From Escherichia coli (GTDB taxonomy: Bacteria; Pseudomonadota; Gammaproteobacteria; Enterobacterales; Enterobacteriaceae), in NCBI RefSeq assembly GCF_003334815.1, contig NZ_QOWO01000010.1: a stretch of 64,000 nt of DNA; one strand, given 5' to 3'. Positions 55,157 through 55,567 of the stretch are shown one piece after another. The notes under the pieces were generated by a model. That model had not been told where the DNA came from. It saw only the letters and a program-made list of their open reading frames with translations, and ran no database searches. Made by a program: the position numbers and the translations under genes. Numbering within the stretch: position 1 is the first letter of the stretch; every line of letters begins with the position of its first letter.

Positions 55157-55567
55157 TGTCCTTCTCCTGCAAGAGAATTATTTTAATTTTCGCTTAATTC
55201 AGCGAAACCAAAGTAAAGTGGTCAAGCCCCGCGCATAGCGCAAGCTTTGGCAGAAGAAAGGACTAAAGCGCGTTGCGCCAGTGCTGCTCACCTACGAGCA
55301 AGATAGTGGATGAGGTACGAAGATGGGTAAATGTAGAAAATAACGTCCTGAACAAATTGTCCATAATATTACAATTATCCGCAGTGTTGCTTCTCGTCAT
55401 CGCGGATGATAATTGTCCTCGGTAGTTGAACACGCCTGATTTGTATCATAGCTTAAGAATTAACTCAAAATATTTTCACTTCTTTACCTGAGCGGTTTGA
55501 TTTTCGTTATGATGACGGAGCGAAAAAGACATTATTATTAGCAAAGGAAGAAAAAACGGGGACAAGC

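Follow-up and report, generated by a model that had tools for sequence, protein, structure and literature searches.

A conserved bulged hairpin in the leader of the spermidine-induced mdtU-mdtJI transcript of Escherichia coli and its possible role in initiation on the mdtU upstream open reading frame

The DNA analyzed here is a 64-kb stretch from Escherichia coli (hereafter the window, 64,000 nucleotides), in which the mdtJI genes and tqsA are divergent and are separated by a long intergenic region. According to the list of open reading frames and the RefSeq annotation, the locus is laid out as follows.

54475-54804, minus strand: mdtI
54791-55156, minus strand: mdtJ, with its ATG at 55156
55157..55567, 411 bp: mdtJ-tqsA intergenic region
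55568-56602, plus strand: tqsA

A sequence-only reading of the window had drawn attention to this gap because of its length, its AT-rich tracts and an imperfect inverted repeat, and had found no terminator in it. Each of these descriptions held. The coordinates place 411 bp between the end of mdtJ (55156) and the start of tqsA (55568); GC content falls to 0.27-0.30 at 55140-55199, 55320-55379 and 55440-55499; and the imperfect arms TTATCCGC (55375-55382) and GCGGATGATAA (55402-55412) were recovered by a repeat finder as a fully complementary 9-nt pair at 55371-55379/55408-55416 and a second 9-nt pair, 89% complementary, at 55374-55382/55402-55410. A terminator scan of the region returned no terminator-like site, and the features of a Rho-independent terminator, a G+C-rich stem and a U tract, were absent from the repeat, whose stem is followed by AAUAUUAUGG. 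The 521 bases around the repeat are 100% identical to MG1655, the window being E. coli K-12-like, and this 521-bp query was found in 5418 of 5426 complete E. coli genomes, at a median of one place per genome. When 54400-56700 was scanned against Rfam 15 with E up to 10, no family reached its gathering threshold, and the hits were noise from eukaryotic snoRNAs and lncRNAs.

The transcript to which the repeat belongs can be placed from published data. The transcription start site (TSS) of mdtJI is a G located 278 nt upstream of the mdtJ ATG, as determined by primer extension (Leuzzi et al. 2015, PMC4636849), and the same position was obtained by dRNA-seq as cited in PMC7815308 (Adams et al. 2021). 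Around this site, the following elements were assigned.

55433, minus strand: TSS of mdtU-mdtJI (G), published, with the coordinate derived from the mdtJ ATG at 55156
55440..55468, minus strand: mdtUJI promoter, read from the sequence relative to the published TSS
55473..55487, minus strand: upstream box GTAAAGAAGTGAAAA at about -54..-40, invariant and resembling a CpxR site
55534..55539, plus strand: -10-like TATTAT box for tqsA, ~30 nt before its ATG, a conserved alignment block

The mdtUJI promoter consists of a -35 element TTGAGT (55468..55463), a 17-nt spacer and an extended -10 element TGaTACAAA (55448..55440), and the blocks TTTGAGT and TATGnTAcAAAT are conserved in the alignment of orthologues. 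A consensus scan of the region for promoters and terminators reported nothing, this promoter included, because its rule demands T at the last -10 position, whereas the actual -10 is TACAAA with an upstream TG. The pattern GTAAA-N5-GnAAA of the upstream box occurs in 80 of 80 loci at a near-fixed distance, and mdtJ is a member of the CpxR iModulon; the likeness of GTAAAGAAGTGAAAA to a CpxR site refers to the general CpxR consensus. Since the TSS lies at 55433 on the minus strand, the repeat occupies +18..+63 of the mdtU-mdtJI mRNA. It lies outside the tqsA 5' UTR, as it is ~120 bp upstream of the tqsA -10-like box. The entries for tqsA in the supplements of PMC7815308 are antisense and pntB ends only.

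Much of the leader has already been characterized. It contains mdtU (formerly ydgV), a translated 34-codon uORF that ends 106 nt before mdtJ, and the start codon and translation of mdtU are required for spermidine induction of mdtJI (PMC7815308). Transcription of the leader is terminated prematurely by a Rho-dependent mechanism, the 3' end lying 6 nt inside mdtJ, and mdtU translation is needed for relief of this termination and for spermidine-induced read-through before mdtJ (PMC7815308). With regard to sensing, the authors of that study favour the conserved C-terminus of MdtU, where ribosomes would stall in a speFL-like manner; their model requires no role for a hairpin. In the window, the uORF and the elements between it and mdtJ are:

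55263..55364, minus strand: mdtU (ydgV) uORF, 33 aa plus a TAG stop, from the literature and orthologues
55250..55262, minus strand: pyrimidine-rich segment UCCUUUCUUCUGC after the mdtU stop, complementary to the mdtJ ribosome-binding site in the full-UTR fold
55158..55170, minus strand: mdtJ Shine-Dalgarno (SD) region GCAGGAGAAGGAC, from sequence, fold and orthologue comparison

The distance from the mdtU stop to mdtJ in the window is 106 nt, in exact agreement with the published value. The uORF was found in all 80 loci compared, always ending in a TAG stop, with 31-37 aa and nearly always the end GEQHWRxAL, and RefSeq annotates a 56-aa 'protein YdgV' on the minus strand of the gap; the earlier statement that the gap holds no convincing open reading frame was therefore mistaken. 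The segment after the mdtU stop and the mdtJ SD co-vary, with GUCC/GGAC in E. coli versus GAUC/GAUC in Buttiauxella; this pairing had already been mentioned as predicted in PMC7815308. Thus, the gap is neither an empty spacer nor a tqsA leader. The suggestion that it might be a shared regulatory site or the 5' untranslated region of tqsA was right as to its regulatory, leader-like character and wrong as to the gene and strand, and the idea of a site shared by mdtJ and tqsA is disfavoured by loci without a divergent tqsA (see below).

The repeat itself directly precedes mdtU and corresponds to the following elements of the mRNA.

55417..55420, minus strand: GAGG SD-like box, +14..+17, adjoining the 5' foot of the hairpin, from anti-SD scoring
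55371..55416, minus strand: bulged hairpin, +18..+63, 46 nt, from the single-sequence fold, RNAalifold and covariation
55365..55370, minus strand: A/U-rich spacer AAUAUU, 6 nt, from the stem base to the mdtU AUG, read from the sequence

In the hairpin, an outer helix (ACAAUU, 55416..55411, paired with AAUUGU, 55376..55371) and an inner helix (AUCCGC, 55407..55402, paired with GCGGAU, 55382..55377) flank a bulge in the 5' arm, which in E. coli is AUC (55410..55408), and the loop comprises 19 nt (55401..55383). A covariance model of the hairpin matched the 64-kb window at this one place only. The folding energy of the single sequence was -13 kcal/mol (z = -2.4), and 98 of 100 dinucleotide shuffles of the gap had a 58-nt window folding as well or better. 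Partition-function folds gave pair probabilities of 0.8-1.0 for most stem pairs in three of four contexts and of 0.35-0.53 for the closing pair A27-U57 in all contexts; in the +1..+100 context, the probability of the outer helix was 0.51-0.63 and spacer accessibility was 0.45-0.99. The spacer and the A of the mdtU AUG were predicted to be mostly unpaired, and the G of the AUG paired. In the ribosome-free fold of the full-length leader, GAG of the SD box pairs with mdtU codons (unpaired probability 0.02), and this partner is not conserved. Folding energy was of no use for choosing the strand because the antisense folds slightly better on average (-12.8 kcal/mol over leaders, compared with -11.2 kcal/mol for the sense strand).

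Longer-range pairings were also considered and rejected. A pseudoknot joining GUGUU at the 5' end to AACAC in the 3' part of the loop would use partner columns that vary more than any others in the element, without compensation. That the anti-SD after the mdtU stop pairs with GAGGAC of the leader or GAGAAG of the loop was dismissed on account of Buttiauxella and Enterobacter, in which the anti-SD differs while the leader is unchanged, and a helix between +2..+16 and C-terminal codons of mdtU is predicted in E. coli, with codons that differ without compensation in Citrobacter and Enterobacter.

Published Term-seq data contain RNA 3' ends within the element, which we mapped to the window via the published mdtJ 3' end (1673496 = 55151).

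55371, minus strand: 3' end at +63, the last stem nucleotide (MG1655 1673716, M63 medium, 104,182 reads)
55381, minus strand: 3' end at +53 (MG1655 1673726, LB OD 0.4, 48,661 reads)

Both ends were classed as 'orphan' in Supplementary file 1 of PMC7815308, and their read counts exceed that of the characterised mdtJ 3' end (1673496) under the same condition. A hairpin that is folded in vivo yields just such a 3' end at the foot of its stem; the end found in LB falls within the 3' arm.

To assess the conservation of the element, we compared 80 mdtJ loci from species-representative genomes, including Escherichia, Citrobacter, Enterobacter, Lelliottia, Kluyvera, Leclercia, Silvania, Salmonella, Kosakonia, Phytobacter, Pluralibacter, Buttiauxella, Cedecea, Huaxiibacter and one Erwinia, and added 120 metagenome stretches that were retrieved via the conserved end of mdtU. 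Among 63 distinct leaders, 97.6% of the pair cells were standard pairs, and in a covariance-model alignment of 78 distinct leaders from at least 17 genera 96.5% of the pair cells were paired. Moving the partners by 1-3 columns left 29-46% paired, in 500 column shuffles neither the paired fraction nor the covariation score of the real alignment was ever attained, and RNAalifold recovered both helices unguided. Three pairs of the inner helix carry compensatory changes on both sides: U-A replaces C-G in Leclercia, in Silvania and in metagenome sequences related to them, A-U replaces G-C in Erwinia sp. S63, and U-A replaces A-U in Phytobacter as well as in one metagenome sequence. It should be noted that covariation is thin (three variable pairs in eight sequences, which probably go back to 3-4 independent events and without exception run in the expected direction) and that the pairing is mostly uninformative, because the element is almost invariant. 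The 3-4 nt bulge in the 5' arm is kept in every leader. G.U pairs in E. albertii, Buttiauxella, Erwinia and one metagenome sequence (L155) occur on the mdtU-sense strand only, and no helix mismatch was rescued by reading the opposite strand.

Conservation was not confined to the helices. The first ~70 nt of the transcript are among the best-conserved non-coding blocks of the gap, level with the invariant box upstream of the promoter, and exceed the N-terminal two-thirds of MdtU in conservation. Of the unpaired parts, both the 5' tail (GUGUUYAACUACYGAGG) and the loop (GAYGAGAAGCAA) are invariant to the same degree as the stems, which points to a constraint beyond simple bridging of an SD; neither the alignments nor the folds yielded a co-varying partner for the tail or the loop. 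In addition, all 11 loci that lack a divergent tqsA (two Silvania, Salmonella arizonae, four Kosakonia, Erwinia sp. S63, Phytobacter, Pluralibacter gergoviae and Enterobacter sp. ENT03) keep the hairpin, and it therefore belongs to mdtUJI. Taken together, the conservation with compensatory changes and the mapped RNA 3' end at the base indicate that the repeat is real, and it is very probably a conserved RNA hairpin of the mdtU leader. The sequence-only reading had named lack of conservation in orthologous intergenic regions as the outcome that would speak against the repeat; the comparison across those regions gave the opposite result.

Several readings of the repeat other than a leader hairpin have to be weighed against these data. 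That it arose by chance and has no function would fit its unremarkable single-sequence fold energy; however, the element is nearly invariant over at least 17 genera while the neighbouring N-terminal codons of mdtU diverge, and this, together with the compensated pairs and the 3' end mapped to the base of the stem, makes chance extremely improbable. In favour of a DNA operator for AcrR, H-NS or an unknown factor, serving mdtUJI or both divergent genes, the literature describes AcrR shifting a 286-bp fragment that spans the region at 1 uM, with two AcrR-like sites predicted, and H-NS binding to the region, with downstream deletions that raise reporter activity; symmetric changes in the two arms would also suit a dimer site. 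Nevertheless, the best AcrR-like matches carry 9-10 mismatches and were equalled in 134 of 200 shuffles, which is the level of chance, and the deletion effects attributed to H-NS are equally explained by loss of the Rho attenuator. The geometry is likewise unlike that of dyad operators, as the inner arms are 19-20 bp apart and the 3-4 nt bulge lies on one side only, and the G.U-type changes break DNA symmetry. The characteristics of a dyad-symmetric operator (adjacent half-sites and an above-chance match to the 24-bp AcrR site) were thus not found in the repeat, and where tqsA is absent the element stays with mdtU. We consider an operator quite unlikely. Still less probable is a coding explanation, in which the conserved sequence would encode the 56-aa YdgV, a 45-aa MdtU starting from an AUG in the loop (55400) or the 24-aa CDS61 (55449..55375). 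Coding is favoured by the RefSeq annotation of YdgV, by PIRT-seq fusions that fall in both frames and, for CDS61, by a peptide alignment across four genera. On the other hand, the start of the 56-aa YdgV would fall on the TSS nucleotide itself, and an in-frame stop precedes the mdtU ATG in 28 of 80 loci; the AUG of CDS61 lies 16 nt upstream of the TSS, and its frame is open to the hairpin in just 19 of 80 loci. An open in-frame upstream AUG exists in just 28 of 61 loci, and the lengths of the loop and bulge vary by 1-2 nt between genera, which are not multiples of three, so that any frame is broken. Neither the 56-aa RefSeq model of YdgV nor CDS61 is probably a gene.

We then examined the position of the hairpin relative to the start of mdtU by scoring anti-SD complementarity over the 72 nt upstream of the mdtU AUG in 57 distinct leaders. 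The GAGG or GGAG at the foot of the stem was the best anti-SD match in 54 of them, at -5.7 to -6.6 kcal/mol, the GGAG form, which is still SD-like, being that of Leclercia, Silvania and Phytobacter. This box lies 47-54 nt upstream of the mdtU AUG in 54 of the 57 leaders (52 nt in E. coli). In the window of canonical spacing, the best match reached -3.3 kcal/mol and was a GGA inside the 3' arm (-16..-14), which is lost (+0.4) in Leclercia and Silvania, where GCGGAU has become GCAGAU, with mdtU and the stem kept. The spacer from the 3' foot to the AUG measures 6 nt in 47 of the 57 leaders and 5-8 nt in all others but one. Closure of the hairpin changes the distance from the SD to the AUG from 52 nt to about 6 nt. 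PIRT-seq in-frame reporter fusions at 55384 and 55386, inside the loop and in two frames, show that ribosomes load upstream of the annotated AUG and downstream of GAGG, and one of these frames has near-cognate AUU and AUC codons 3-9 nt after GAGG. These fusions support GAGG as a loading site, and they do not bear on bridging or the folded state because the insertions destroy the stem.

On the basis of this geometry, the hairpin may be part of the translation-initiation region of mdtU. Folding would put GAGG beside the AUG at normal spacing and so assemble a split ribosome-binding site, from which ribosomes could translate mdtU efficiently; the translating ribosomes would counteract Rho and, near the mdtU stop, could free the mdtJ ribosome-binding site. 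Spermidine may stabilise the bulged helix, so that the hairpin itself may aid spermidine sensing; this idea draws on the reported stabilisation by spermidine of bulged helices in the distant-SD mRNAs of the polyamine modulon. We tentatively favour a role of the hairpin in promoting initiation on mdtU as a split ribosome-binding site, at a probability that we put slightly below even. Counting against this role are the thin covariation, the conservation of the unpaired loop and tail, the predicted pairing of the SD box with mdtU codons in the ribosome-free fold and the LB 3' end at +53.

Two further explanations accept the hairpin as RNA and assign it a different function. It might mainly be a stability or processing element that blocks 3'-to-5' exonucleases, so that a 5' leader fragment of 53-63 nt builds up once the RNA has been cut in the A/U-rich spacer or terminated by Rho; the hairpin would then play no part in initiation, or the short RNA would be functional itself. 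We regard this as unlikely. The abundance of the ends at +63 and +53 relative to the characterised mdtJ 3' end fits such a function, as does the conserved, single-stranded 5' tail, which is seed-region-like. It would leave the conserved SD-like box at the stem foot and the fixed 6-nt spacer unexplained, however, and the fragment, having neither a U-tail nor a terminator, is not a canonical Hfq-type sRNA. Since any stable hairpin is expected to leave a 3' end at its base, the mapped end is also compatible with a role in initiation. Leader structures that mask initiation regions are common, and the hairpin could instead restrain mdtU translation by hiding the region before the AUG, including the GGA at -16..-14, in which case it would have to open. 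Its 3' arm indeed stops 6 nt from the AUG and covers GCGGAU. This proximal GGA, however, is weak (-3.3 kcal/mol) and badly spaced, and Leclercia and Silvania have lost it (GCAGAU) yet retain mdtU and the stem. With the stem formed, moreover, the spacer and the AUG are predicted to be mostly unpaired, and mdtU-lacZ activity has been described as robust (PMC7815308). A restraining stem appears rather unlikely.

The split ribosome-binding site favoured above could also be part of a larger device. The ~70-nt leader of mdtU, comprising the tail, the bulged hairpin and the loop, might as a whole be a spermidine-responsive RNA switch that assembles the site, which we put forward as a speculative and rather unlikely extension. 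The sensing step would then be initiation on mdtU, instead of or besides arrest at the C-terminus of MdtU, and the near-invariant loop and tail could serve as a contact surface for a ligand or the ribosome. The interest of such a device lies in the function of the operon. MdtJI exports spermidine, which is toxic in excess, and the published model looks for the sensing step near the end of the uORF; a conserved bulged hairpin that prepares the uORF for initiation would, if true, be a second control point for the spermidine response. It would also add a cellular case to the split ribosome-binding sites, which are known mainly from phage T4. On its own, the hairpin is a modest addition to a known leader.

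The closest comparison is with the published mdtU-mdtJI leader itself (PMC7815308, PMC4636849), which is the same locus: the repeat lies inside its 278-nt 5' UTR, directly before the uORF. Their accounts cover the uORF with its conserved C-terminus, the helix formed with the mdtJ ribosome-binding site and the 3' end inside mdtJ. In the literature on the leader, we found no description of a hairpin upstream of mdtU or of an SD box at its stem foot, and the 'orphan' ends at +53 and +63, although listed in the supplement of PMC7815308, were not described in the texts on the leader. Thus, the leader, the uORF and the Rho control are already known, and the hairpin, the SD geometry and the ends at +53 and +63 appear to be undescribed.

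With respect to split ribosome-binding sites, the review PMC3014915, which covers Nivinskas et al. 1999 and Malys and Nivinskas 2009, gives hairpin closure from 22 to 5 nt and from 27 to 11 nt for genes 38 and 25 of phage T4. As in these genes, the linear distance between the SD of mdtU and the AUG is too great for initiation, and the two are separated by a conserved hairpin whose closure would bring them to a functional spacing; the leader combines a distant SD, the lack of a usable SD at canonical spacing and a conserved hairpin closing to ~6 nt. Unlike the T4 examples, the mdtU hairpin is bulged, has a conserved loop, is cellular and serves a regulatory uORF. At 46 nt it is also larger than they are, an observation that points against a role in initiation. 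Among polyamine-related leaders, speFL is cited in PMC7815308 as an ornithine-sensing arrest peptide with Rho control, and it resembles mdtU in being a uORF of a polyamine-related operon whose translation state governs Rho termination. In that account, unlike what is proposed here for mdtU, speFL senses when its uORF has been translated to the end, within the exit tunnel of the ribosome, and a counterpart of the hairpin in the initiation region is not known from it.

Finally, the mdtU leader can be compared with the first class of the polyamine modulon defined by the Igarashi/Kashiwagi group (oppA, rmf, fis, rpoN and others; PMC7177335), whose mRNAs combine a bulged-out hairpin in the initiation region with an SD that is distant or obscure, and in which spermidine acts on the bulged helices. 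The SD distances in this class are about 11-20 nt, unlike the 52 nt of mdtU. Like these mRNAs, the mdtU leader has a distant SD and a helix with a 3-4 nt bulge, and the operon that it precedes is induced by spermidine.

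Two gene models compete with the accepted 33-aa MdtU reading frame in the leader of the spermidine-exporter operon.

55263-55433, minus strand: RefSeq annotation 'protein YdgV', 56 aa, GTG start
55375-55449, minus strand: CDS61, 24 aa, proposed from PIRT-seq

The first nucleotide of the YdgV model is the transcription start nucleotide itself, and 28 of the 80 orthologous loci carry a stop in this frame within the 23 codons that precede the accepted mdtU ATG; because of these interruptions, the 56-aa model is probably over-extended relative to 33-aa MdtU. CDS61 overlaps the -10 box, the transcription start site and most of the conserved bulged RNA hairpin that precedes mdtU, and its AUG lies 16 nt 5' of the mapped start. 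Its frame is open up to the hairpin in only 19/80 loci. The PIRT-seq signal assigned to it may alternatively come from AUU/AUC codons located 3-9 nt past the GAGG box at the 5' foot of the hairpin.

Two 'orphan' RNA 3' ends of the mdtU leader are present in published Term-seq data (PMC7815308).

55371, minus strand: +63 end, M63 medium
55381, minus strand: +53 end, LB

Both ends are strong, each exceeding the characterised 3' end in mdtJ (PMC7815308), and therefore a leader RNA of 53-63 nt accumulates.

Further features lie at the end of mdtU and in the region beyond it.

55263-55292, minus strand: MdtU C-terminal end, by orthologue comparison (loci L002-L081)
55250-55262, minus strand: pyrimidine-rich segment directly 3' of the mdtU stop
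55158-55170, minus strand: mdtJ Shine-Dalgarno region

The MdtU C-terminus reads GEQHWRxAL in nearly all of these loci, and the stop codon was TAG in every one of the 80, an unusually strict choice for a 33-aa peptide. Pairing between the post-stop segment and the mdtJ Shine-Dalgarno region was mentioned as predicted in the mdtU paper (PMC7815308). From genus to genus these two segments appear to vary in concert, with GUCC/GGAC in E. coli and GAUC/GAUC in Buttiauxella, and such joint genus-level changes support the predicted pairing.

Flanking elements were found on the side of the divergent neighbour tqsA and upstream of the mdtUJI promoter.

55534-55539, plus strand: conserved TATTAT(A) box, ~30 nt before the tqsA ATG
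55473-55487, minus strand: invariant box GTAAAGAAGTGAAAA (GTAAA-N5-GnAAA), by orthologue comparison

The TATTAT(A) box looks like a putative tqsA -10 element, in which case tqsA would have a short 5' UTR (~20 nt). In Salmonella enterica subsp. arizonae (L062, ~2024-2122), tqsA is lost or rearranged, with only a 33-aa C-terminal remnant of it upstream of mdtU; the mdtU leader is intact there.

The CpxR iModulon has been reported to include mdtJ, and despite this membership mdtJ was without a ChIP-exo peak under ethanol stress. The upstream box is located ~54-40 nt 5' of the mdtUJI start and was identified in 80/80 orthologous loci at a near-fixed distance. The CpxR consensus is GTAAA-N5-GTAAA, from which GTAAAGAAGTGAAAA differs by one mismatch, and the box is a perfect match to this consensus in Cedecea and strain RIT693.
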